From the NCBI RefSeq assembly GCF_036588685.1, contig NC_086376.1, positions 83,393,014 through 83,457,013 of the forward strand: a stretch of DNA of 64,000 bases, read 5' to 3'. The notes beneath the pieces were generated by a model. The model saw only the letters and a program-made list of their open reading frames with translations, made no database searches and had not been told where the DNA came from. Below, in pieces: positions 8,526 through 40,260 of the stretch; the stretch's first letter is position 1, and each line of letters starts with the position of its first letter. The translations under genes and the position numbers were made by a program. The DNA is from Mytilus trossulus. Lineage: Eukaryota.

Positions 8526-8587
8526 ACATACTTGATTGACCAACACAGAAGAAAGACTTAAAATATTAAAAAAAGAATAGAATTCAC

Positions 8588-10804: not shown

Positions 10805-11075
10805 AATGTCTTATGTTTTATACTCTTTACAACAGATTTCCATGAGTGCGTAGCTAAAGGTAATATCTTTGGTTATATTGCTTGCTAACTAAACTGAAGT
10901 CATTGTTAGGTAAGGTACAAATGTATACTACCCTCCTTTCGAAGTAACTTAGTCCTACAGACAGATAGAATGGTAATCTGTCGGACTAGTATACTCTTAA
11001 AAGAGGGTAACTTGCCTAACATAACAATGACTTCACGGTTGATCTAACAAGCAATCTAACCAAAGATATTACCTT
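10805..11075. mobile_element. Hairpin MITE copy 1 (long, about 100-bp terminal inverted repeats)
   Basis: The left arm is the reverse complement of the right arm across a central loop near 10940-10990. A second copy lies at 24665-24950. Confidence 0.6.
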
Positions 11076-11950
11076 TGCCTACACACTCATTGAAATCGGC
11101 TGTGAAACACTCTTTCAGTGCTTGCTTTAAAACATTTAAAAAATCACAGCCTCAATTTAAGAGATAAGTGGATAGCTCTCGGTGCATATCAGTAAGAATC
11201 TATTGGTATATGCATTACCAGATGAGATTGAAATAAGACCAAAAAACGTACTTAACAGAGTCATTTCGAATATACTCGGTATTCAAAATCTATGAGTTAA
11301 TACCTTCAATCTATTTCAATGCTTTCAATTCAAGTTGACTGCTATTGAAATAGATACCGACCGAATAGGCCATATCTTTTTGGTCAATGGTACAATAGCT
11401 TTCCAGTTGCTATATTTCTTCCATTTGAGACAAACATACAAAGGACAGTGAATGGTTTTTTTTAAACTATTTTTATAACAGGCCCAAGTACACGAGGACC
11501 ATATTTGAACCTGTAACGATGTTCGATAGATGAACACTTTGTATTGATCGGACGAATAAAAAACAAAGACCACGCGTTCATACGTACTTTTTGTTTTGTT
11601 TACACCAATATTGTTATTTACATACCGGCTTTAAATTTGAATTTGTTTTGTTGTCTATTAATCTACATGTATTGGTTTGTGTATTCAGGTTTTGACTTCC
11701 CAGAGTTAATTTGCTAACAAATAACTCAAGACAAATATAATATATATTTATTTAATTGACCTATAATTTCGAATTCATTTAAATAACACATATGTTGCTT
11801 CATGATACATAGAATAATTTAAAGCCTAGATGACTATGAGTTGGATATTATTTTATGTATACCTCGGGTGCAGTTCTCTTTAAACAAAAAGAAAGCCATT
11901 TATTTTAGTGTTTGCAAGTGTTTATTCAATTGTAATAAGTTTTTTTAACA

Positions 11951-12005
11951 ATGCTACCTTTGAAGCTGTCTTGGATGCTCTTGTTGCAAGTGGTCATAAC
12001 ACGAG
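11951..12005 (+). CDS. Lectin gene exon 1: signal-peptide-like MLPLKLSWMLLLQVVITR(G), donor gtatgt at 12006
   Basis: An ATG is followed by a hydrophobic core. The phase-1 donor joins in frame to the phase-1 acceptor at 13418. There is no homology support. Confidence 0.45.
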
Positions 12006-13417
12006 GTATGTAAACCTGTATAGACGGGCGGATTGGTTGAGATTATGTTCGCGCAAACAAAAACATAACATTTGCGCGACTTTAACCTATAAATCTACCT
12101 GTATATTTGCCATTCTATTAAATACAACTTACTTTTTAAAAGTCATATTATTATTGTATACTTTACTGGACGAATATCCATTCAATTTGTAGGTGTCATT
12201 TGGACCGTGTTTTTAAATATACATGTATAGAGAACAAATGCAACATTTGCGCGGCGAGAACTATAATTACGTTCGTGCGGATTTCAAAATAGCAATTTAA
12301 AACAGGTATTTACCTTTATTTTAAGCAATAGCTCTAGTTCTAGTCCTTTCATAAACGTACAATCCGTGCAAACGTAAAATTTCCCGCGCAAACGTAACAT
12401 TTTTGTTCACCCAAAACTAACATTTTTGTTCGCGCAAATATATTTACCAATCCGCGCATATGTAATGTATGTGTATCGACGAATTTACTAACTTTACTTA
12501 TTAGAAGGTATGTAATTTTGCAATACGATACACTGAGTATGTATTAGTTGAAAATTGTACAAAGAACTGTAACAGGGTTCGTTTATTAGTTCTCATATTA
12601 TGAAATTGCATACTAAAACGTCTTTTTTAAAAACCAAACCTTAGTCTACGAATACGGCGAACGCGCACATACACATATATTTCTTCAAAACTCAATCACT
12701 GAATCAATTTTACAGTTTCAGTTTACCATTTACCTTGTCACAACTTTATTACCTTTTATTTATGATAAAGTGAAAGATTCGTAAGTGACAGAAAATGAAT
12801 TCCAACTAGCCCTCCCAACAAGTAAAGTAACTGCAAATTGCCAATGATACCAACTCCCTGTATATTTTTTAATTTGCGCTTTCCTAATCGGAAGATCAAT
12901 CTAGAAATGCGCATCAGGCGCACGAAATTGATAAAGTGAAAAAATTATTCAATTATAATTGAGAGTGTTCTTGTTCTTTTATGCTCTGTGTGACGATATG
13001 ATTGCAAACACGTCAAACTTACTTGTTCTTACAAAAATATGACAAAAGGGTGGAATAAATTTACAAATTGTAAAAATAAAGAGAGAGGTTCGAGTGCTTG
13101 TTCCAAGTCTGGACATCTTAAAACTTTGTTAAGTGTTGTTTCGTTAGGTTCCTATCTCATTTACTTGTATCACACATCTCCTTTCATTCATACAAAACTT
13201 GAAAATGGAAATGGGGAATGTGACAAAGAGATAAACCCGACCAAAGAGCAGACATTAACCAAAGGCCACCAATGAGTCTTTAATGCAGCGAGCAACCCCG
13301 CACCCTGAGGCGTGCTTCACCTGGCCTGAAAAAAGTACAAAAGAAAACCCACAAAATATCAAAGAAAGACAAATGTACCGTACGACTGAATTTTCAATTA
13401 TTGATTTTTTTCTGCAG

Positions 13418-13559
13418 GTTTCAGCACATATTTCTATCTAGGACCATCCATTTTGAATTATTATGATTCATTGGATTACTGTACGAACATTGGAATGAAA
13501 CTGGTAAAAATTAACAACGACCAAATGAACAATATGGCAGCGCAATTCATCACGAGTGA
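13418..13559 (+). CDS. CTLD-1 N-terminal half: FSTYFYLGPSILNYYDSLDYCTNIGMKLVKINNDQMNNMAAQFITS(E)
   Basis: C-type lectin fold signature: Y..F...T...A...C...G..L..I....E..F. Acceptor is tttctgcag and donor is gtaagt. Confidence 0.75.
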
Positions 13560-14512
13560 GTAAGTATATAGTCTACAGGAGCTAGCAAAGGGGGAAGAAA
13601 AATCTGTGGTTGCAAAATTTTCAACTTTTCTATTAATTCATTACTTTTAAAATAGTTAACATTTAGCTTAAACTAGATCGTTTTCATCCAGCGATATGTG
13701 TTATTTTCACATGCAACATTATCAAAACTGCTAACACTTTCGTTTTTTAAGAGGTTTCATGATTTGTAATTAATTTTGAAAATACAATGAGCACATTTAT
13801 TGCCGGACATAACTGTCAAATTCGTGTCCCCGATTCGAACCAAATACTCATATTTTATTTATAACATAGTGAAACATCTATCAAGATTTAAAAAAATGTA
13901 GGAAAGTATTTAAGGGGCATTAGCTACGATTTACACCAAAACATAAAACGTGTTATTTTGTGTTTCTAACATTTTCAAAACCGAAATATTGAAATAATAT
14001 TTCGCTAGCTATTAGCTGTCAGGTCGGTTCATTTTTTTCCAAATAAGATTTTATCTAAACAACAGCAAATGACTTGTCTTATTGGCTTGCAAGTATGATT
14101 CAATCTTATTTGAATCCATAGTCATGCAACCTTTAATTTTACCATGAAGCATAAAATATCAGCCAGGTCCATTTCCGCAAAGTCCTTTTATCTTAAAAAA
14201 AAAAAAAAAAAAAATACCAATGAGCACCGTGTTTACTTATATTTTGATATTAGATTAGGTTTTTTTTTCGAAATGTGCAGACAAATTTGGGAATAAATCA
14301 AATACCTTCCCCAATGCCAAGTGTTGCATGGAATACGACGTGACCATAGCTTTATAGGTCTGTCATTCAATATTTATTATTGTAATTGTGTTCATCTTTG
14401 GTAGACATTTGTATTACTAGTATATGTTGTCAAATATATTTGCGTATACAGGATTTTTGAAGGTGGGGATGTTAGTCTCAAAACCGGCTCTATGGATATA
14501 TATTTTTAACAG

Positions 14513-14712
14513 GAGCATAGTCGATGATGTGTGGATGTCTGTATATTGTCCGCCAAACCAACTTTGTCATTGGGATGATGGCAATACGTTGGACTATGAC
14601 TCATGGGCAGCTACTGAACCAAAATTTGAATTTGGAAAATTTAGCCAGACCTATGCTTATGTATTGTGGACGACTGGCGCCTACACGGAACTTAACCGCC
14701 CTCTATGTTATG
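14513..14712 (+). CDS. CTLD-1 C-terminal half: SIVDDVWMSVYCPPNQLCHWDDGNTLDYDSWAATEPKF...NRPLCY
   Basis: Contains W.DG...Y..W...EP and the terminal LC motifs. Acceptor is aacag and donor is gtgtgt. Ends in phase 1. Confidence 0.75.
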
Positions 14713-14956
14713 GTGTGTATCACTTTAATGTATATACATATGTAATAGTAGAGTACATGTTCCAAAATTCCTTTATCTAGATCTTTTTTTCATCTCTCTC
14801 CTTTCTTTCACAATTATGTTTTAGTGATTAGCTTTGTGTAAATTTTTCATTTATATTTGATAGTGGAAACAGTCTTTTAGTACAATGTATGTCATTCTAA
14901 TTTAATTTCATTATATATTGATTAAAACTATTAATCATGATTTTGATTACTCTATT

Positions 14957-15375
14957 TTCTGTCTATTTTCTTTGGGATTATTTAAGCATTTTGATCATGC
15001 TGTCTGTCTATTTTCTTAGAGATTATTTAAGCATTTTAATCATGCTTTCTGTCTATTTTCTTAGAGATTATTTAAGCATTTTGATCATGCTGTCTGTCTA
15101 TTTTCTTAGAGATTATTTAAGCATTTTGATCATGCTTTCTGTCTATTTTCTTAGAGATTATTTAAGCATTTTGATCATGCTGTCTGTCTATTTTCTTAGA
15201 GATTATTTAAGCATTTTGATCATGCTTTCTGTCTATTTTCTTAGAGATTATTTAAGCATTTTGATCATGCTTTCTGTCTATTTTCTTTGGGATTATTTAA
15301 GAATTTTGATCATGCTTTCTGTCTATTTTCTTTGGGATTATTTAAGCATTTTGATCATGCTGTCTATCTATTTTT
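14957..15375. repeat. 45-bp minisatellite, about 9 copies (tctgtctattttcttagagattatttaagcattttgatcatgctg)
   Basis: Tandem periodicity is visible directly. It is intronic in the lectin gene. The 153-aa ORF across it is a periodic artefact. Confidence 0.9.
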
Positions 15376-16097
15376 TCTTCTTTTTGGCTTTAAGTTAAGT
15401 GGGGATAAGAGATGCCTAAAATATCATCAGGTATGTGCAGTTTTATGCTATGACATTTTTAATTTCTCCATTCAAATTGGGTTTGTTGCCTTGGGGAAAA
15501 TATCGTATCAAAGAATTCTAAAATCGCTGATATGTTTGATTCTATTTTCTTTCCATAAAAAAAAATATGCCGTGCAATACTTAAACACCCATGCGTGTTT
15601 TATGCTTCGGATGCTTAAATTGCTATTAATGAGACAACTATCCAACACAATTATATATGTTTTAAGAGATTTATACAATGAGTTTTTGTTATCAATATTT
15701 TAAATAGCTAGGTAATTGATATTCGAACTTTTTAGTTCTATTTTTTTTTTTTTTATCATATATGTACTTTCAATTTGAATAAATTTCTTTTTTTTTACTC
15801 TCATTTTCATTTAGGCATTAGTAATGCCTCGACATAATTTTCATGAAAATCCTAAAATTTAAGAGTAATGCCTAACATTATTAGGCAATTAGGCAATAGA
15901 CTTAATACTGCCTAGTCGTTAAAGTATTACCTTAGCTTTAAACGGAATGCCTTATTTCACTTATTGCCACTAACATATACACTTTATTGCATAGTTTTTA
16001 CAATAATTTTTGTTTTAATGAAGAAAAAAAACATTCACCGTCTTTCTGTATTCTCTTATGTCAAATTTGTTTCTACTTGTATACTGTTATTTTACAG

Positions 16098-16242
16098 CAC
16101 CTCCTCATCCAGACGTGACATTTATCCATGGAGATTATAACTATTATGAAGCCTCGCAAGAATGTATTAACTTAGGTGGACAATTAGCTGTGTTTTCTAA
16201 TCCAGTAGCCGTTACGTATTTAAAAGAGTTCATAACTTATGA
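16098..16242 (+). CDS. CTLD-2 N-terminal half: (A)PPHPDVTFIHGDYNYYEASQECINLGGQLAVFSNPVAVTYLKEFITY(E)
   Basis: CTLD N-terminal signature (C..GG.LA.......L..F). Acceptor is ttttacag and donor is gtatgt. Confidence 0.8.
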
Positions 16243-17092
16243 GTATGTATTTTCAAGTTAAGATCAGTCAACACTACATTTACATGATTTAATATTTCAA
16301 AATTATAAATTCTTGCAACATATTAAGAATATCTTTGCTAAGATCATCCTTAGACAGCTTCAATGCGAGTACTGATATATGTCCTAGGATATTCATAAGA
16401 GGACCATTAGACAAAAGTCACATGTTTTAAGATATATCTTATGACATGTCCTTTATTAGCTTAGTGAAACCGGCCCCTTACTTATAACTTTTGTACTCAA
16501 GACGCGCATTTCGGCGAAAAAAAGAATCATCATACAGTGACACTCGAATAAAAAAGTAAAAGTTCAAATAAAGTGCGAAGAGTTTTGAGGATCAAAGTGT
16601 TTTTGAAAGGTTTAGCAGAATACAACTATAGCCTAAGGTATTCTATTAATGGGATAGGAAATCCATAGACGCTCTTCGGTTGAATTTGCATTTGCATTTT
16701 TATTCTATTTTTGTTTTATTTTTCAGCATTTGATATTAATTAAGGATTGATAGTATCTGAAGTGTTGCATCACTAACGAGAAATACATTTTAAAAAACGC
16801 ATATAAGACACAAAAATTTGCTTTTGTATCATACAATTTTATCTTGCTTCATATTCATATACGAATATGCGCACTCTTCTGTTACTTTCTCGGGAATAAG
16901 GTATATTCAATTTTAGGATATATACTTGAATACTAAAGGATAGTTATGAAACTGTTTTACAATAGTTCATTCAATATTCATTTTATAAAATGTAGTTTAC
17001 AGCAGCCTAAACTTCTCGGCATCACATATTATATGAAACATTGAGATTTTTTCCCCCGAAATAATCATTGTGAAAGTTTTAGTTAAGTCAGA

Positions 17093-17245
17093 GGCGGATT
17101 TAGGGGGGGGCAGGGGGCCCGGCCCCCCCTTTTTGGGAAAACATTTGGTTGCTTATATAGGGAATCACTGAAGCGTGAATGAAGCGGGCCCCCTCTAAGT
17201 TCAGTCAGTGGGCCCCCACTTATGAAAATTCCTGGATCCGCCACT
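17093..17245. mobile_element. MITE with CAGnGGCGGAT terminal inverted repeats and G/C homopolymer-rich ends
   Basis: Starts cagaggcggattt... and ends ...ggatccgccactg. Related copies lie at 34500-34650 and, as a partial, 9935-10055. Confidence 0.5.
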
Positions 17246-17324
17246 GTAAGTATATAGTTTTGGGGATCGCACTAAAACAAGATTAGTCTGTAAGTATTAA
17301 TGAGTTATGTTGTTTTTGTGCTAG

Positions 17325-17536
17325 AACTCTGACTGGTGACATATGGATAGGCCTATATGGTAACGGAGCATATTTAACCTGGCAAAACATGGTCGAAAGT
17401 GTGGTTTATACGGACTGGAAACCAGGCCACAATGTTCCCAATCAGGATGCAAACGTCTCTATAGCGGTGGACATGATCGATGGTACATGGGTGTCAAAAA
17501 CTAAATCTACCAGACTGCCTCACGCATTATGTCAAT
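17325..17536 (+). CDS. CTLD-2 C-terminal half: TLTGDIWIGLYGNGAYLTWQNMVESVVYTDWKPGHNVPNQDANVS...LPHALCQ
   Basis: Contains WIGL and W.......Y.DW.PG.P. Acceptor is ctag and donor is gtaagt. Ends in phase 1. Confidence 0.82.
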
Positions 17537-17616
17537 GTAAGTTGTTACAGGTTTGAGATGAACTTCAGTCATAATGTGTGCTGTTCTAGAATTTTCAGCT
17601 TTTAGGTTAAGGGGCT

Positions 17617-17800
17617 ACCATTTAGGAGATAACTATATTGTATTTTAAGCTCCGACGGCATCAATTGGGGATTTGATGGTCGCAAATTAAGTTTACTGGC
17701 GACGCGTTAGCGGAGACAGTAAACGGGTATTTGCGACCATCAAATCCCAAATTGATGCCATTGGAGCTTAAAATACAATATTAATATCTCCATTCTACTG
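17617..17800. mobile_element. Hairpin MITE (about 184 bp, near-perfect foldback; TIR ggagataactatattgtattttaagctc)
   Basis: The left half is the reverse complement of the right half. A second diverged copy lies 160 bp downstream. Confidence 0.7.
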
Positions 17801-17957
17801 AAACTGACAGAAAACAACGTTAAAACATGTATTTAAAATTTGTCATGTGCCGTCTGCGCTTGTGCGTACGTCCCATAGCATCAATTGTCAATTGATGCCA
17901 TGTAAGAAAGTGACGTTATCCAATCAAAATGAACGTTACAAACGTTGTTGTATTAGA

Positions 17958-18130
17958 ATTAGGAGATAACTGTATTGTATTTTAAGCTTGGCCTTCGTAA
18001 AACGTAGATTTTACTGTCGCAAATTGAGTTTACCTAGCGACGCGGAGCGGAGATAGGTAAACGGATATTTGCGACAGTAAAATCAAGTTTTACGAAGGCC
18101 AAGATTAAAATACAATACAGTTATCTCCAT
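17958..18130. mobile_element. Second copy of the foldback MITE (same terminal inverted repeats, diverged interior)
   Basis: ttaggagataactgtattgtattttaagc ... aaaatacaatacagttatctcc. Confidence 0.7.
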
Positions 18131-18529
18131 TCTAATGCCACATATTAAAATAAATGTCATTTAATAAATATTTTGGCTTAAAAATGGCATAGATGAAAAA
18201 GTCCGCGAAACTGTTGCATTGTCTTTAGCATCTAAACAATGTGACGTCATGTGTTTACTCTGGATGTCAAACATGAATACTAAACATATTTTTACTTTTC
18301 CTACGCTTCAAAATGGTTTCAATATAGACTAAAAGAAGATTTTGAGGCTCAAAATGTGAATATCTTGTTTATTTTTTGAGAAATTACATATCCCAGAATT
18401 CAAAATGGTGGCTTTCTTAGTTACGGACTGGTAGAACGTGGAATCTAACCCCTCAAAATATTTCTCAACGTCCAATGAAAATTATCGTTACAAACTAATT
18501 GCATTAGAATTGATTTTTAGGGGGTGTTA

Positions 18530-19020
18530 TGATAAAAAAAAAAGACAGGATAGCCGGAAATTCTGATAAAAAAAGGTTTTTATGTAGAAAAAAGTCAGGA
18601 TATATTACTTAAAAAAAGGCAAAACCGTACAGAGTGAAAATTAGTAAGATTACTACTAAAAAAAAAGGCAGGACAGAGATAACCACTAAAAAAAGACAGG
18701 ACAGAGATTACCACTAAAAAAAAGACAGGACAGAGATTACCACTAAAAAAAAGACAGGACAGAGATTACCACTAAAAAAGAGACAGGACAGAGATTACCA
18801 CTAAAAAGTAAAATCACAAAAATACTGAACTTAGAGGAAAATCAATTCGGAAAGTCCATAATCACATGGCAAAATCAAATAACAAAACGCACCAAAAACG
18901 AATGGACAAGAACTGACTAAAAAAGACAGGACAGAGATTGCTACTAAAACAGACAGGACAGAGATTACTACTCAAAAAGAAATGACAGAGATACCGCCCC
19001 CCCCCCCCCCCAAAAAAAAA
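18530..19020. repeat. Roughly 31-bp minisatellite (aagacaggacagagattaccactaaaaaaa)n ending in a C13A12 homopolymer run
   Basis: Repeated units are visible. The homopolymers are at 18996-19022. Confidence 0.85.
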
Positions 19021-19319
19021 AAACCACACACAAATAAAAATGGTTGCTCTCTAACACTATAATATATCTTACACTGCTTCGATCTTTGCACTTAAATTAA
19101 TGTTTAGCAAATCCAAATAATTATAACGTTTCAAATTGATCTGTTCAAATACTCTAAAAAGATGTGGGGAAATTCAAAATCATGCATTCGAATCAACAGT
19201 GAAATAGTTGTATCAAATGGATTACGTGGAATGTTTTGTTCTTCTTTATTTCAAATTGAATAAACGTTTTACAAATATAGCATTGTCAATATTAGAAAGT
19301 AAATTTTAGATTCATATAT

Positions 19320-20615
19320 TTTTAGCTCACCTGGCCCAAAGGGCCAAGTGAGCTTTTCTCATCACTTGTCGTCCGTCGTCCGTCGTCCGTCGTCCGTCGT
19401 CGTCGTCGTCGTCGTTAACTTTTACAAAAATCTTCTCCTCTGAAACTACCGGGCCAAACTAAACCAAACTTGGCCACAATCATCATTGGGGTATAAAGTT
19501 TAAAAAATGTGTGGCGTGACCCGGCCAACTAACCAAGACGGCCGCCATTGCTAAAAATAGAACATAGGGGGTAAAATGCAGTTTTGGCTTATAACTCAAA
19601 AACCAAAGCATATAGAGCAAATCTGACATGAAGTAAAATTGTTTATCAGGTCAAGATCTATCTGCCCTGAAATTTTCAGATGAATCGGACAATCCGTTGT
19701 TGGGTTGCTGCCCCTGAATTGGTAATTTTAGGGAAATTTTGCTGTTTTTGGTTATTATCTTGAATATTATTATAGATAGAGATAAACTGTAAACAGCAAT
19801 AATGTTCAACAAAGTAAGATCTACAAATAAGTCAACATGACCAAAATGGTCAATTGACCCGTTTAGGAGTTATTGCCCTTTATAGTCAATTTTTAACCAT
19901 TTTTCGTAAATCTTAGTAATCTTTTACAAAAATCTTCTTCTTTGAAACTACCAGGCCAAATGAAAACAAACTTGGCCACAATCATCATTGGCGTATCTAG
20001 ATTAAAAAATGTGTAGCGTGACCCGTCCAACCAACCAAGATGGCCGCCATGGCTAAAATAGAACATAGGGGTAAAATGCAGTTTTTGACTTATAACTCAA
20101 AAACAAAATCATTTAGAGCAAATCTGACAGGGAGTAAAATTGTTTATCATGTCAAGATGTCAAATTTTCAGATGGATCGGACATTCTGCTGTAAGGTTGC
20201 TGTCCCTGAATTAGTCATTTTCAGGAAATTTTGCCGTTTTTTGTTATTATCTTGAATATTATTATAGATAGAGATAAACTGTAAACAGCAATAATGTACA
20301 GCAAAATAAGACCTAAAAATAAGTCAACATGACCAAAATGGTCAATTGACCCCATAAGGAGTTATTGTCCTTTATAGTCAATTTTTAACAATTTTCATAA
20401 AGTTTGTAAATTTTAACTAACATTTTCGACTGAAACTTTTAGGCCAAGTTCAATAAAGATAGAAATAATTGTAAGCAGCAAGAATGTTCAGTAAAGTAAG
20501 ATTTACAAACACATCACCATCACCAAAACACAATTTTGTCATGAATTCAAATGCGTCCTTTGTTTAATATTCACATAGACCAAGGTGAACGACACAGGCT
20601 CTTTGGAGCCTCTAG
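19320..20615 (+). mobile_element. Composite non-autonomous element: terminal hairpin (agctcacctggcccaaagggccaagtgagct), (GTC/GTCGTCC)n microsatellite at 19368-19416, two ~540-bp internal tandem units and a conserved tail ...ggtgaacgacacaggctctttggagcctctag
   Basis: All parts are visible in sequence. A reverse-complement copy lies at 52700-54015. The structure resembles the satellite-carrying Helitron-like / tandem-repeat MITE elements described in bivalves. Confidence 0.7.
19368..19416. repeat. (GTCGTCC)n/(GTC)n microsatellite inside the composite element
   Basis: gtcgtccgtcgtccgtcgtccgtcgtcgtcgtcgtcgtcg. Confidence 0.9.
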
Positions 20616-20897
20616 TTATATTTATTTTCAATTTTTCAAAAAGTCAAAAAGTTATTAAGCTACATGTCTTTTAGGTGATTTTTTATATACTATTTGAAAA
20701 ATTATTTTCAGAAACGAATAAATCATCTGAAGGTCGTAAAATTTCTTTATTTTAAATTAAATATAGAGGGATATTTGCCGATATTTCATATTTGTTTCTC
20801 GCTAGGTCTATTCTACTCCACTATTTATTACAGCTTTGAATTGTGTATACTTTGTTTCATTGAGTTTCTTACCAAAGTCTCTTATTTCTGAATGTAG

Positions 20898-21036
20898 ATA
20901 ATTATTTGGCGATGAGTTACTCCGTTGATTATCAAACTGCTAAACAGGATTGTGAAATGAATGCTTTGGACCTTGCCATGCTACCCACAAATGAAATGTT
21001 TACAGTTGCAAAGAATGCTATTGTCTACCAGGGAAT
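20898..21036 (+). CDS. CTLD-3 N-terminal half: (Y)NYLAMSYSVDYQTAKQDCEMNALDLAMLPTNEMFTVAKNAIVYQG(M)
   Basis: CTLD N-terminal signature. Acceptor is tgtag and donor is gtaagt. Confidence 0.8.
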
Positions 21037-21859
21037 GTAAGTAATAGAAATACTGAAATCAGAATCTATCTTTTTAGATACACCTAATAATGTAACAGAA
21101 ACTAATCCGTTTTTAAACATGTCCAAACTATTCTATTTAAATTTATTATGTCTCAAATGGAATTAGAATAATTATGTATCTCTCATCTCTACACTCTAAT
21201 TGTTAAGTAAACACTCCTTAGTTACCAAGGCAAAATCCTTTTAAGACACTTGAATTGTACGCATACACTCCCTACAATGAGGCTACATTATGATAAACGA
21301 TACAATATGGGTTCACCCTTGCTGCTTCTTTGCCTCAGTGCAGAAAGAATCACTAATTTTACTGGTCAATATATATCTTGCATTTACTGGGTAACTGAAC
21401 TAACTAAGTTCTCTTGTTATTCTTAAATCCTTGCGTACTTGCTCCAAAGTCAGGAACCTTTAATTCAGCAGTTGTGTCTTGTTGCTGTGTTACATATTTA
21501 TGTTTCGTTCATTATTTTGTACATAAATCAGGCCGGTTTTATTATTTGAGTTGTTTTACATTTGTCATTTTCGGGCCTTTATATCTGACTTTGCGGTATG
21601 GGCTGCAACTTTGCCCATTGTTGAAGGCCGTATGGTGACATAAAGTGGTCATTTGGGCACTTGTGGAGACGGTTGACTCATTGGCACATCTTCTTGTATT
21701 TACTGATGTGATGATAGAACGGAACGGAAATAAATAATTACTCTATTTGAACTTTGAGAGGACTGTTAGATATCAGTAACTCTTGATATAACCATAGATG
21801 TAATACCGATAATCTTTTTAGTGCTTGCCAATGATCTTCGATAATATGCTAAAGCCCCA

Positions 21860-22365
21860 GGGACAAGAAAAACGATTTCTAATTATATTACAGGGACATT
21901 TATAAAAGTTTCTAAATATACTACAACGACAATAATAACATTTTTTAAACCTAGTACAGGAACAAAGTCAATAATAACGATTTCTAAATATATTACACGG
22001 ACAATAATAACGATTTCTAAATATATCGCATGGACAATAATAATAATTTCTAAATATGTTACATGGACAATAATAACGATTTCTAAATATATTTCATGGA
22101 CAATGATAACGATTTCTAAATAAAGTACATGGACAATAATAACAATTTCTAAATATTATGTTACATGGACATTAATAACGATTTATAAATATAGTACATG
22201 GACAATAATAACAATTTCTAAATATTATGTTACATGGACATTAATAACGATTTATAAATATATTACAGGGTCAATAAGAACGATATCTAACTTGATATGC
22301 TACAAGGAGTCGACAATACTAACGATTTCCATATATTTACAGGGACAATAATAACGATTTTTGGA
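21860..22365. repeat. Roughly 33-bp minisatellite (acatggacaataataacgatttctaaatatatt)n, about 15 copies, running directly into the CTLD-3 exon
   Basis: Tandem units are visible. The last unit supplies the acceptor AG and the first codons of the exon beginning at 22343. Confidence 0.9.
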
Positions 22366-22551
22366 TTGGACTGACATCAGCAGATGGAATTTCATTCAAA
22401 TGGAATGATGGAACAGATCTTACGGAAACAGCATGGATTTATGGAGTACCTACGTCATTTGCTATAAACCAACGTGTTAAACTTGTTTACACTAAAAGTT
22501 TTGATTGGGATAATAGAGCAGCGACGGAAACCAGTCTATTTCTTTGTCAAT
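22343..22551 (+). CDS. CTLD-3 C-terminal half: DNNNDFWIGLTSADGISFKWNDGTDLTETAWIYGVPTSF...SLFLCQ
   Basis: Contains WIGL, WNDG and WDN motifs. Acceptor is tttacag and donor is gtatgt. Ends in phase 1. Confidence 0.82.
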
Positions 22552-23185
22552 GTATGTATGTTTTCCTTGATATACCAAAATGAGGGATTCGAGAAAAAAA
22601 ATTAAAGAAAAAATATAGAAAGCTATACTTATTGTCACAAATATGATTTTTTTATGTGTAAATAAAACTTTTGTCGACCTCATCGAGTGTTTCAATTTTG
22701 AAATAAACTTGATTTTTTTTTAAAGCGAGATTATTTTTTTTTTACATATGGATAAAGCTAAATTAACAATGAACTGATATTCCCATTGTTCGAGTGTGGG
22801 TGTATTTTTGTACGAATATGTATGTGATTTTCTCATTAAACAATAAATGTGAAAAACGAAAATGTACACTAGATAAACTTTGTAATATATAAAAAAGATG
22901 ATGTGGTATGATTGCCAATGAGACAACTACCCACAAAAAGACCAAAATGACACAAACATTAACAACTATAGGTCACCGTACGGCCTTCAACAATGAGCAA
23001 AGTCCATAATATGATCATTTTGTGGAGTCAAAATACAGGTGAGTGTAGGGGGTCGTATATTGGGATAAATAAAAAATTGTTTTAACCATTTAGTTAGACT
23101 ATTGTTTCAGTAAAATTAATCCTGTATCATCATATATATCCGATTATACATCACATTTAATAATTCATATAATTATTTACAATAG

Positions 23186-23296
23186 ATCCAACGGCGAACT
23201 ATTATCCAATATCCCAAGATATAGTTGAAGGTTTAACAACAGGAGTAAACACACCGGCGGGAAATATTGGTCAATGGCATGTTGGTGGTACAAACA
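23186..23296 (+). CDS. Linker exon (Y)PTANYYPISQDIVEGLTTGVNTPAGNIGQWHVGGTN(S)
   Basis: Open in frame between the phase-1 donor at 22551 and the phase-1 acceptor at 23799. Acceptor is aatag and donor is gtaagt. Confidence 0.65.
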
Positions 23297-23798
23297 GTAA
23301 GTAAAGTAGCAAACAACGTTAATACTTCATGGAATAAAAAATGAAGAGATGACAAGACTACACCGCATTGAATTTGATAATGGTTTTTTTTTTTGCAACC
23401 TATGCATCTAATTGTGTTAAACTATTAATTTATATGCATATATTCTACTTTAATTTTGATAGATGAGTGAGAATCAATCGATAAATGACGTTTGTTAAGG
23501 GAGCTATTATTTGATTTTTTTTATTGGGTAAAAGGGGGGTGGGGGCTAGGATGAAAATTGTTGTCCTGCCTTTTTTGTTTTTCAATTTATTCGGTCCTGC
23601 CTCTTCTTTAACTCGAAACTCCTCTCCTGTCATTTTTTTTAAATTTCATCCTAGCCCCCTGAAAATCAAGTGGTAGCTCCCTGATAGCACAGTTATATTT
23701 TGTGTATCCTTGACCTGATGTCCAGTGGTTAAATAATGTTCAAAGTAACTGTTTGCTGCATTTTCCTTCAAAATTGCGTATTTTTTCATCTTTTACAG

Positions 23799-24022
23799 GT
23801 TCAAGGTATTTTCATATTGACAAGACAGATGCCATCCCAACGTCTCTTCCTTATTTAACCGAGTATTCCAAAACAAAGATTTACTGTGCCTACTTATGTC
23901 TACGTCATGGAACCGATTGTACAGCATTTGTCTTTAAAACTGAACAGTGCCTAGTTTTCAATGGATACAGCTCCATCAACACCACACCAGATATTGGAAG
24001 TGTTATCTGGGTGTGGGTGTAA
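23799..24022 (+). CDS. Terminal exon: PAN/apple-like domain ...KIYCAYLCLRHGTDCTAFVFKTEQCLVFNGYSS...VWV*
   Basis: The cysteine spacing C-x3-C-x6-C-x9-C with the AF.F....C.L motif is typical of PAN/apple modules. Stop at 24020-24022. An AATAAA lies near 24160. Confidence 0.7.
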
Positions 24023-24664: not shown

Positions 24665-24950
24665 TATGTTTACAGCGGATTCCATTGAGTGTGTAGCCAC
24701 TTATAATATCTTTGGTTATCTTGCTTGTTAGCTGAACCGTGAAGTCATTGTTAGGTTAGGTAAACTTCCCAACTTTAAGAATAGACTAGTCCAACATAAA
24801 ACCAATCTATCTGTTTGTTGGACTATGCTACTTCGAAAGGAGGATAGTATACCTGACCGTCTAGCAATGACTGCACGGTTCAGTTAACAAGCAAGCTAAC
24901 CAAGATATTACCTTTGACTACATACTCAATGGAATCTGCTGTAAGAGCAC
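24665..24950. mobile_element. Hairpin MITE copy 2 (same family as 10805-11075)
   Basis: Shares arms of about 100 bp with copy 1 and is internally palindromic. Confidence 0.6.
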
Positions 24951-29389: not shown

Positions 29390-30030
29390 TTTGTTCACTA
29401 CTTTACTTTATTATTTTCTATTTCGCTCCTTGTGTTCAGTTAAAGCGGACTTTACTTTATTATTTTCTATTTCGCTTAAAGCGGACTTTACTTTATTATT
29501 TTCTATTTCGCTCCAAGTGTATTCAATTAAAGCGTACTTTACTTAATCATTTTCTATTTCGCTCCTTGTGTTCAGTTAAAGCGTACTTTACTTTTAAATT
29601 ATTATTTTCTATTTCGCTCCTTGTGTTCAGTTAAAGCGTACTTTACTTTATTATTTTCTATTTCGCTCCTTGTGTTCAGATAAAGCGTACTTTACTTTAT
29701 TGTTTTCTATTTCGCTCCTTGTGTTCAGATAAAGCGTACTTTACTTTATTATTTTCTATTTCGCTCCTTGTGTTCAGTTAAAGTGGACTTGACATTATTA
29801 TTTTCGTTTTCGCTCCTTGTGTTCAGTTAAAGCGTACTTTACTTTATAATTTTCTATTTCGCTCCTTGTGTTCAGTTAAAGCGTACTTTACTTTATTATT
29901 TTCTATTTCGCTCCTTGTGTTCAGTTAAAGCGTACTTTACTTTATTATTTTCTATTTCGCTCCTTGTGTTCAGTTAAAGCGTACTTTACTACATTTTTTT
30001 CTATTTCGCTCCTTGTCTTCAGTTAAACCG
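29390..30030. repeat. 53-bp minisatellite (gcgtactttactttattattttctatttcgctccttgtgttcagttaaa)n, about 12 copies
   Basis: Clear tandem periodicity. Confidence 0.9.
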
Positions 30031-31965
30031 TATTGCACTCAATCCGGAATATTATTTGGCCTACGCATACGCTCTTTCCAACTAATTTATCTATTGACAT
30101 CACATATCTTGCTATATCTGCTAGCTATGCCCGTACTCGTCTTAATATTTATATAGTCTTTATGTATTTTTAAATGAGATTGTAGAGCAAAATGTTTCAA
30201 CCTTCTTTGTTCGTATTCATATGTAATTTGTCGATTTAACCGAGCATCTGTTGCCCTCAAGGAGTAAATGTAATGTTTCGGCATCAGTCGGGAGGATCTA
30301 GAAATTTTCCGTCCGCTGTTGGTGAACGAATCAACGGAGTGTTTTTTTTCAAATTGAAAAGAAAATTGAGACATGAAAAAGCGTTGAAAATTTTACATAA
30401 TCACAGTCATGAATCAACATTTTTTTTTTAACGTTTGAACTTTTTTGAAAAAAATATGAATCCTTATGATGACTATAACGCTAATTCATTGAACTATGGA
30501 ACCTCCTGTTTAAGTGTTTGCCCAAAGTTGTAGAATAGAACGGACGAGTTTATTTGTTCAAAAATCCAGGAACCAAGAAAAAGAAGAATAAGAGGATACC
30601 GTACATCGCATGTAAAATGGGAACAACCCCATAAAAAAGCCGGAGTCGAGCAAATCATGTTATAAGCCACGTGGCCCGATAAACAGGTTTTAAGTTTATC
30701 AAAATTACAACTGAACTAACGATGTCAATGTACGGTTTAGAAAAGAGGTGGAAGATCAAAAGGAGGGTCCAAAACTGTTTGTTACTTAGAACCGTCAAAA
30801 TAGTTTTAAAATAATGATAATCGACAACAACAAAAATCAAAATGTACAAATCACAATATAATTACTACTCAACTACACAAACCTCATCAAAAACCGAGGG
30901 TGATTTGAGATTCTCTGAAAGGGTAGCAATGAGATTGAGCTCAAAAAGTAACACGGCTATGTACGGTAAATATGCATGTAAGCTTTTTAAGTCAATTATA
31001 AATAACGTATTCCGAAATAGGTAGAAAGCTAGCTAACCAAAGCGGTTGCATTTACCTAAACACTCAAGGCAAGCAGCTGTAACACGGTTATGTAGGGTAA
31101 AATATATGTCGATAAACAACGTACACGAAAAACATCTCTAGTGCTCAGAAAGGTTTATCAACAATGTATCTCACAATTGTAAAAGAGTCTTTAGAAATTG
31201 TAATAAAAGATTATATTCTTAAAATTACCTCAATTCAAAATCATTTCAATGAAAGATGATTGTTAAAAAAAATTGTTTTTGAATGGGTCCATCGCGTGTA
31301 ATACGTTAATAAGATTAGTATTTAAGGAAAAGAAAGAAAAAAATGTCTTTATTAGGCTACATTATATACTGCATTATAAATGAAAAGTAGAGTTACCTTT
31401 ATTTAAAATCCGGTTCAGTTTGATTTTAAAAATCAACATTAGCTCTGAGGAATTGTATATTTTTAGATTTCTTGCAACCTATCAAAATTTAAAGCTTTTT
31501 TAAGAGTGTCACCTTTTTAGAAATGGTCGATTCGTACATGGCAAAACTGAGAAGTTCATAAAAAGAAACAAAAGGTATGTTGAAAGATAAGTTTATATTA
31601 CGAACGTGTTAGTTAAGTTTGAATAGCTGTTTTGTTTTGTTTAAACTATCAGATTGCAAGTTAAATACAAATAGATAATTCAAATCTATTTAAAGTTAAA
31701 CTTGTTATGGCGACAGGATACACTTTAAATTCTATATTCAAAATATAATATTCTTATTAAAGGATTGATAGATTTTTTGTTTAGTTTTCATTTAATTTCG
31801 TGTTATTGTCTGAATGTAATAAATGAATAAGAAGCAATTTCATAGTAATTCATTACTGTCTCTTACTTTTGAAATACGAGATATAATTAATCTGGTATTG
31901 TTTTAAAATAATCACCTTTAGAAGGAAAGCCGAATTAGATTTCTTTCGTACGACACGCTTCGAGT

Positions 31966-39599: not shown

Positions 39600-40260
39600 A
39601 AGCAATATATATCAGTTAAACATAGGACCCTATGGGAAATGCATACAAATGACTTCTTCTAGAGAACCACTGAATGGAATGAAACCAAACATGGCATGAA
39701 TGAACCTTATAATGTGTTGACCAAGTGTTGTTACTTTGTAGCTGATCCATCATCCAAGATGGCCGTTAGTGGGGAACTTAGACTTACATTGGACCCTATG
39801 GGAAATTCTTACAAATGACTTCTTTTAGAGAGCCACTGAATGGTGAGAACCAAACCTAGTATGAATGTGCCTTATTAGGTGCTGAGCAAGTGGTGTAACT
39901 TTGTAGCCAATCCATCATCCAAGAAGGCCGCCAGCTGGGGACTAAGTTTTAAATAGAACTGTAAGGGAAATATATACAAATGTCTTCTTTTAGAGAACAA
40001 CTGAATGGAATGAAACTAAACATAGCATGAATGTTTCTAATGATATGCTGACCAAGTGTTGTTACTTTATCGCCAATCCAACTTCCAAGATGGATGCCAG
40101 TGGGGGACTAATTTTAACATAGGACCCCATGGGAAATACATACACATTTCTTCTTTTAGAGAACCACTGAATTGAATGAAACCAAACATAGCATAAATGT
40201 TCCTTTCCTATTAATGAGGTTCTGGCCAAGTGTTGTTACTTTGTAGCCAAATTTTATCTT
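39600..40260. repeat. Roughly 165-170-bp satellite, 4 tandem copies (..ataggaccctatgggaaatgcatacaaatgacttcttctagagaaccactgaatgg...ccatcatccaagatggccg..)
   Basis: Four successive diverged units. The array ends about 35 bp before the composite-element tail motif at 40296. Confidence 0.8.

Follow-up and report, generated by a model that had tools for sequence, protein, structure and literature searches.

A polymorphic 33-bp minisatellite, most likely derived from a 3' splice junction, reiterates the acceptor of a C-type lectin exon in mussels

In the mussel Mytilus trossulus, the intron that interrupts the third C-type lectin domain (CTLD) of a lectin gene ends in a 33-bp minisatellite whose last unit spans the 3' splice site. 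We found it in a window of 64 kb (the whole stretch of DNA analyzed), which is AT-rich eukaryotic DNA with a GC content of 32%. Most likely, this minisatellite arose when 33 bp straddling the 3' splice site were duplicated in tandem, in a lineage-specific event, and it is polymorphic in length. Taken as a whole, the locus is very probably best explained as a junction-derived, polymorphic minisatellite made up of mostly silent or unproductive decoy acceptors. The coordinates of its features are collected in Table 1.

Table 1. Features of the lectin gene and of the junction minisatellite in the M. trossulus window (a slash marks a splice junction)
Feature	Position	Strand	Evidence
Host gene LOC134714244, nine coding exons	11951-24022 (approx.)	+	tblastn of XP_063431556.1 onto the window
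CTLD-1, first-half exon	13418-13559	+	
CTLD-1, second-half exon	14513-14712	+	
CTLD-2, first-half exon	16098-16242	+	
CTLD-2, second-half exon	17325-17536	+	
CTLD-3, first-half exon (3a), donor GGGAAT/gtaagtaa, phase 2 end (AT)	20898-21036	+	100% match to XP_063431556.1 residues 253-298
Phase-2 intron inside CTLD-3, 1306 bp	21037-22342	+	
33-bp minisatellite, 14 intronic units and junction unit	21861-22360	+	TRF, unit tables, single-copy M. californianus homolog
Unit 1, unit-phase decoy AG; if used, MDKKNDF then stop	21859-21860	+	
Unit 2, unit-phase decoy AG; if used, MDIYKSF then stop	21892-21893	+	
Unit 4, unit-phase decoy AG; if used, MNKVNNNDF then stop	21958-21959	+	
Central units 5-12, no acceptor dinucleotide left (ACAC in one unit, ACAT in seven)	21986-22255	+	Unit table
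69-bp block of two units, present twice (68/69 identical)	22118-22255	+	TRF period 66 row, unit table
Intact unit-phase decoy AG closest to the authentic site (74 nt upstream); if used, MVNKNDI then stop	22267-22268	+	
TACTAAC in the last intronic unit, putative branch site; branch A 22322, 21 nt before the exon	22317-22323	+	
Authentic acceptor AG, tccatatatttacag/G (ttacag/G at 22342/22343)	22341-22342	+	RefSeq model, open frame, ortholog junctions
Exon-borne part of the last unit, encodes (M)DNNNDF	22343-22362	+	Unit tables
CTLD-3, second-half exon (3b), WIGL to C-terminal Cys; donor GTCAAT/gtatgtat, phase 1	22343-22551	+	

The product of the host gene (XP_063431556.1, 478 aa) consists of a signal peptide, three CTLDs and a C-terminal tail containing Cys. 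As expected of a C-type lectin, three stretches match Pfam PF00059 (Lectin_C; E=9.3e-21, 75 bits against a cutoff of 22.6). The six CTLD exons, once joined, form one uninterrupted frame of 349 codons, and the three introns inside the domains are all of phase 2 and placed at the same position, with the split codon and six residues preceding the Trp of WIGL. Their translation is found intact within XP_063431556.1, that of exons 2 to 9 is contained in it exactly, and translation and protein are identical over 348 and 459 residues. The model of this protein places the acceptor at 22342/22343, and the same junction, VYQGM followed by D(N/V/I)N(N/K)DFWIGL, appears in the gene models of M. edulis, M. 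galloprovincialis and M. californianus. Two Logan contigs (L007 and L008) are spliced transcripts reading CCAGGGAAT/GGACATTAATAACGATTTCTGG, i.e., exon 3a is joined straight to the homologous acceptor. Both match M. coruscus in CTLD-2 with 98% identity, and the direct transcripts across the junction thus come from M. coruscus alone, a species whose genomic contig ends before CTLD-3. An earlier note on this DNA had proposed that both the acceptor AG and the start of the coding sequence of the exon, (M)DNNND, come from the last repeat unit, and the open frame, the shared position and phase of the intron, XP_063431556.1 and the M. coruscus transcript all agree with it; the exon reads (M)DNNNDFWIGL. 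The reading frame is intact in all the assemblies, and dN/dS among the three array-bearing species is 0.21 to 0.22; the host lectin gene is still constrained and shows no decay.

TRF describes the array with a period of 33 (21861 to 22290, 12.7 copies, 78% matches) and again with a period of 66 (7.3 copies from 21861), the latter being the same array extending to 22360. With a period of 33 and 12.7 to 15 units arranged head to tail, it fits the usual description of a minisatellite or VNTR (units of ca. 10 to 100 bp). Dissected unit by unit, it resolves into 14 intronic units and a 15th one, the exon-derived part of which is the exon start itself. Thus, GGACAATAATAACGATTT, at 22343 to 22360, is identical to the unit consensus in 18 of 18 positions. 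The earlier note had the array running up to the second-half exon of CTLD-3, which both TRF and the dissection confirm, with the refinement that it goes beyond mere abutting and reaches ca. 18 to 20 nt into exon 22343-22551. A search with the 26-nt core of the unit (up to 3 mismatches) gave 10 matches in the 64 kb (0 expected from 100 shuffles), all of them within the array and none elsewhere in the window. The last M. trossulus unit has suffered a 1-nt deletion that shifts its register; for this reason, a count of mismatches over the 23-mer is meaningless here, and the M. trossulus decoys were read from the unit table. The nearly identical 69-bp blocks show a recent higher-order duplication inside the M. 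trossulus array. The possibility that RNA structure conceals the decoys was rejected, since the array RNA (482 nt) folds no better than shuffled sequences (z = +0.96) and has no unusual structure. Long open reading frames cross the array in frames other than that of the exon, at 21845-22348 on the + strand (TIITISKY, repeated) and 21886-22155 on the - strand (beginning YLEIVIIVH). They are a mechanical consequence of the period, 33 nt being 11 codons, and are absent from M. californianus, which has no array.

Several other repeats surround or lie within the gene. A second minisatellite in the host gene (14956-15374, 45-bp unit, 9.3 copies, 95% matches) is located between the second-half exon of CTLD-1 and the first-half exon of CTLD-2, adjoining neither. 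The intron between CTLD-2 and CTLD-3 contains arrays of 27 to 29 bp (with AAAAAAGACAGGACAG) at 18647-18807 (5.6 copies) and 18889-18992 (about 3-4 copies), followed by a run of C15 at 18997-19011, and also a direct repeat of ca. 460 bp with 85% identity (19500-19959 and 20002-20447). The gene is flanked on both sides by an element of ca. 280 bp (10827-11109 and 24667-24944). Its two copies match in both orientations, 80% inverted and 71% direct, and the element is therefore internally palindromic and MITE-like. Downstream of the gene, TRF detected two more tandem arrays, at 29399-30032 (49 bp x 13.0, 83% matches) and 39619-40250 (166 bp x 3.8, 78% matches).

The origin of the array can be traced by comparison with M. 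californianus, which lacks the array and has a single copy of the junction, aaatatgttacag/GGACAATAATAAAGACTTCT (also given as aaatatgttacag/GGACAATAATAAAGACTTCTGGATTGG). At the 5' edge, where the array begins, the sequences of all the species are collinear, and the lone M. californianus copy aligns with unit 1. The unit in its ancestral register can therefore be written as AAATATGTTACAG/GGACAATAATAACGATTTCT, with 13 nt from the end of the intron and 20 nt from the start of the exon; unit 1 then starts at ca. 21841. An origin as a dispersed repeat or transposable element was rejected, as no unit copies occur outside the array within the 64 kb and the unit is the local ancestral junction seen in M. 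californianus. From the shared unit register, the duplication would have occurred after the M. californianus lineage split off and before the separation of M. trossulus, M. edulis and M. galloprovincialis, and slippage or unequal exchange would then have expanded the array.

The number of units varies widely. We counted them in seven loci from four species, with one allele for M. trossulus and TRF for the sister-species loci. M. californianus (L002) has one unit in an intron of 511 bp and M. trossulus about 15. The two M. edulis assemblies have 22.0 units in an intron of about 1.5 kb (L001, GCA_963676685) and 37.5-38 in one of about 2.4 kb (L004, GCA_905397895). M. galloprovincialis has 40.0 units in about 2.1 kb (L003, GCA_965363235) and 37.0 in each of two contigs of GCA_900618805, UYJE01008370.1 (L005, intron of about 3.5 kb) and UYJE01005812.1 (L006, about 2.4 kb), which have identical arrays. 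Copy number thus differs within species, as in a VNTR (22 against 37.5-38 in M. edulis and 37 against 40 in M. galloprovincialis), and the comparison of unit number across haplotypes proposed in the earlier note gave a clear positive result (1, about 15, 22, 37, 38 and 40 units). Alleles have their edge units in common and differ in their interiors, e.g., 3 interior units in M. edulis L001 and 19 in L004; together with the duplication of the 69-bp block, this looks like typical minisatellite dynamics. Outside the identical 37-unit arrays, the non-repeat intron of the two M. galloprovincialis contigs (L005, 2397-4727, against L006, 6588-7782) differs by a large indel, in which ca. 1.6 kb of L005 stands in place of ca. 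0.47 kb of L006. These two loci are haplotigs or a recent duplication.

Duplication of the junction also multiplied the splice acceptor. We joined each AG of the array region in turn, as an acceptor, to the phase-2 AT of exon 3a, leaving the authentic AG out of the counts. Use of a decoy leads to a premature stop because the duplication joint, TTTCT/AAATAT, places a TAA in the exon frame (AT/G GAC AAT AAT AAC GAT TTC TAA). In the M. trossulus window, this applies to all 14 upstream AGs, which meet a stop within 2 to 85 codons. Moreover, the unit-phase AG is kept in only 4 of the 14 units (with the A at 21859, 21892, 21958 and 22267), while the other 10 have ACAT (seven), ACAC, ACAA (one each) or a rearrangement. 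The suggestion of the earlier note that alternative acceptors could give in-frame insertions of N-rich segments is thereby excluded for the window. That AG>AT is so widespread in M. trossulus may reflect a single mutation propagated by homogenization of the array, not selection. The last intronic unit has TACTAAC where the other M. trossulus units have TAATAAC, and this motif lies inside an AG-free zone, the nearest upstream AGs starting at 22305 and 22308.

These features suggest how the authentic site might be chosen. Each upstream copy would represent a decoy 3' splice module composed of a branch-like TAATAAC, an AG and an in-frame TAA, the heptamer being supplied by the exon-derived codons AAT AAT AAC ca. 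21 nt before the AG of the next unit. A TAATAAC heptamer ca. 21 nt from an AG is at a typical branch-site distance. After duplication, the ancestral branch point would have been left upstream of the whole array, and the authentic acceptor therefore most likely relies on the last unit's heptamer. The copy at the 3' end, the sole one that continues directly into the remainder of the exon, would be the productive acceptor. Exon definition, through the body of exon 3b and the donor 209 nt downstream, probably favors this exon-proximal module, and any use of a decoy would give a stop-containing mRNA, presumably removed by nonsense-mediated decay (NMD). Most decoys of M. trossulus are dead (AG>AT or AC), and the heptamer of its last unit is a perfect TACTAAC. 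Of the 18 to 36 decoys of M. edulis and M. galloprovincialis, nearly all are intact. We infer that the last AG is predominantly used in vivo in the array-bearing species. Their three sets of gene models and the logic of the open frame support exon-proximal use, although the gene models could have chosen the last AG merely because the frame stays open. The decoys would be either silent or cleared through NMD. As for the array, it is most likely a by-product, neutral or slightly harmful, and would not be an adaptation.

The arrays of M. edulis and M. galloprovincialis have kept the unit-phase AG in 18 of 21, 36 of 39, 32 of 37 and 33 of 36 units. Most of these decoys differ from the authentic site by 0 to 3 nt over -20 to +3 and are almost indistinguishable from it. 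Their AGs show no greater decay than the rest of the unit, with 0.035 mismatches per site against 0.062 at other unit positions; these figures are descriptive per-position counts over units that are not independent, due to array homogenization. The AG decay in the sister species does not suggest selection against decoy AGs. In four of their five loci (L001, L003, L005 and L006), the last unit has changed TAA to TAT, so that the frame of the AG at -33 is open and its use is predicted to add 11 residues in frame, DNNNDFYICYR. In the fifth, M. edulis L004, a TTAAAG variant (C>A) restores the TAA stop in the frame of the -33 decoy. The same locus has, at 8549-8584, a nonconsensus acceptor, gttaaag/G, and three extra exon nucleotides (GGATGTTTTAAATAAC) that give DVLNND, as in the annotated CAG2243796.1. 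The first 20 nt of exon 3b are unusually variable in the edulis complex (DNNND, DVNND, NVNND and DVLNND), with 5 of 20 variable sites against 12 of 189 over the remainder of that exon (Fisher p=0.014, in a small sample). The starts compared were 22343-22362 of the window, 11891-11910 of L001, 8311-8330 of L003 and 8562-8584 of L004. The array units retain the ancestral GGACAATAATAAC, and where the exon truly starts, M. edulis and M. galloprovincialis now have GGATGTTAATAAC.

A further reading gives the array a function. The -33 decoy of M. edulis and M. galloprovincialis would be used beside the authentic site, inserting 11 residues before the WIGL strand; distal decoys would feed a share of NMD that rises with copy number, and the change of TAA to TAT, on the one hand, and the loss of AGs with the gain of TACTAAC, on the other, would be two independent adaptive fixes for the problem of a proximal decoy. 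We regard this as unlikely. The original and broader proposal, that upstream units act as alternative acceptors adding N-rich segments to CTLD-3 in frame and that repeat number diversifies the lectin, seems quite improbable to us. It finds some backing in the unit length of 11 codons, in the four loci with an open -33 AG, and in the use by IFI6 and CBS of the one or two pseudo-sites nearest the exon, in donor-side human cases. However, besides the stops that follow every upstream AG in the window and the one at -33 in M. edulis L004, the -33 site is at best the only open one in any of the alleles, and insertions therefore cannot scale with repeat number. In addition, no insertion or truncation at the junction was seen among the seven proteins of the 90% identity cluster or the other matches. 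What might survive of the proposal, to judge from the sequences, is a single 11-residue insertion at most, in four of the five sister-species loci.

Equally hard to credit is a selected expression rheostat, in which the decoys would divert a copy-number-dependent share of transcripts into NMD and so tune lectin dosage. The 18 to 36 intact modules, each with its branch-like heptamer, AG and in-frame TAA, the undecayed decoy AGs of M. edulis and M. galloprovincialis and the strong difference in copy number within M. edulis (22 against 38) would all be in line with it. Nevertheless, most decoy AGs have been lost in M. trossulus, contrary to a conserved function, concerted evolution alone can hold the units uniform, and the outgroup M. 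californianus manages without an array. An assembly artifact is almost certainly the wrong explanation, and so is a satellite or transposable element that inserted here and has no relation to the exon. Tandem repeats do invite assembly errors, and one M. galloprovincialis assembly has the identical array in two of its contigs, but the same register and flanks appear in five assemblies of three species, the unit equals the single-copy junction of M. californianus, and the 64 kb contain no other copies.

Similar structures have been described in humans. Intron 7 of F7 (IVS7) contains a polymorphic 37-bp minisatellite whose terminal monomer spans the exon/intron boundary, so that the splice site is reiterated in the intron, and the exon-proximal site alone is used physiologically (Borensztajn et al. 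2006, PMC1557585). The described junction-spanning members, F7 IVS7 (37 bp), CBS IVS13 (31 bp), IFI6/6-16 intron 2, LMNB2 and PDGF, are all on the donor side, and in the human donor-side cases only the one to three exon-proximal sites are used (PMC1557585). The mussel array is likewise polymorphic, its terminal monomer lies across the boundary (13 nt of intron and 20 nt of exon, the latter matching the consensus at the 18 of 18 positions given above), and the splice consensus is reiterated in the intron, with YAG/G in 4 of 14 units here and from 18 of 21 to 36 of 39 in the sister species. It differs from all the described members in that the reiterated site is the acceptor (3'). In F7, the site is a 5' donor downstream of the exon, with 5 to 9 copies and 4 nt of exon per unit, whereas the mussel locus has a 3' acceptor upstream of the exon, 15 to 40 copies and 20 nt of exon per unit, its splice use being deduced from sequence. 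The CBS IVS13 31-bp VNTR and the IFI6 (6-16) intron 2 minisatellite are also junction-spanning VNTRs, with 15 to 26 reiterated splice sites, but they are donor-side and vertebrate, and whether their products are in frame or truncated varies by gene. The LMNB2 (100-bp) and PDGF (81-bp) intronic repeats that reiterate the junction are on the donor side too and have longer monomers than the mussel unit. Tandem 3' splice sites are otherwise familiar from NAGNAG acceptors, in which AGs 3 nt apart have one branch point and pyrimidine tract in common and whole codons are added or removed. The mussel locus resembles them in having tandem 3' sites, but with a spacing of 33 nt, a branch-like motif for each site and an in-frame stop in between, it is not a NAGNAG acceptor. 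Our literature searches found no case of an acceptor-side junction minisatellite, within the limits of those searches. The mussel locus is the acceptor-side counterpart of the donor-side junction minisatellites, to which it adds a branch-point dimension and 20 nt of exon per unit.

Donor-side junction minisatellites, F7 especially, have been used as natural models of splice-site selection by the spliceosome when the 5' sites on offer are identical, and the mussel locus fills the gap on the acceptor side, as a model of 3' splice-site choice. It is a natural allelic series of 1, 15, 22, 37-38 and 40 modules at a fixed spacing of 33 nt, each with a branch-like motif, a short pyrimidine stretch and an AG, in a gene under purifying selection. 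Such a series could test exon definition against the first-AG rule among near-identical tandem acceptors, and also the cost of decoy sites. It also illustrates that codons of an exon (AAT AAT AAC), when copied into the intron, can turn into a branch-like element. As regards mussel immunity, the array would be at most a minor source of lectin variation.
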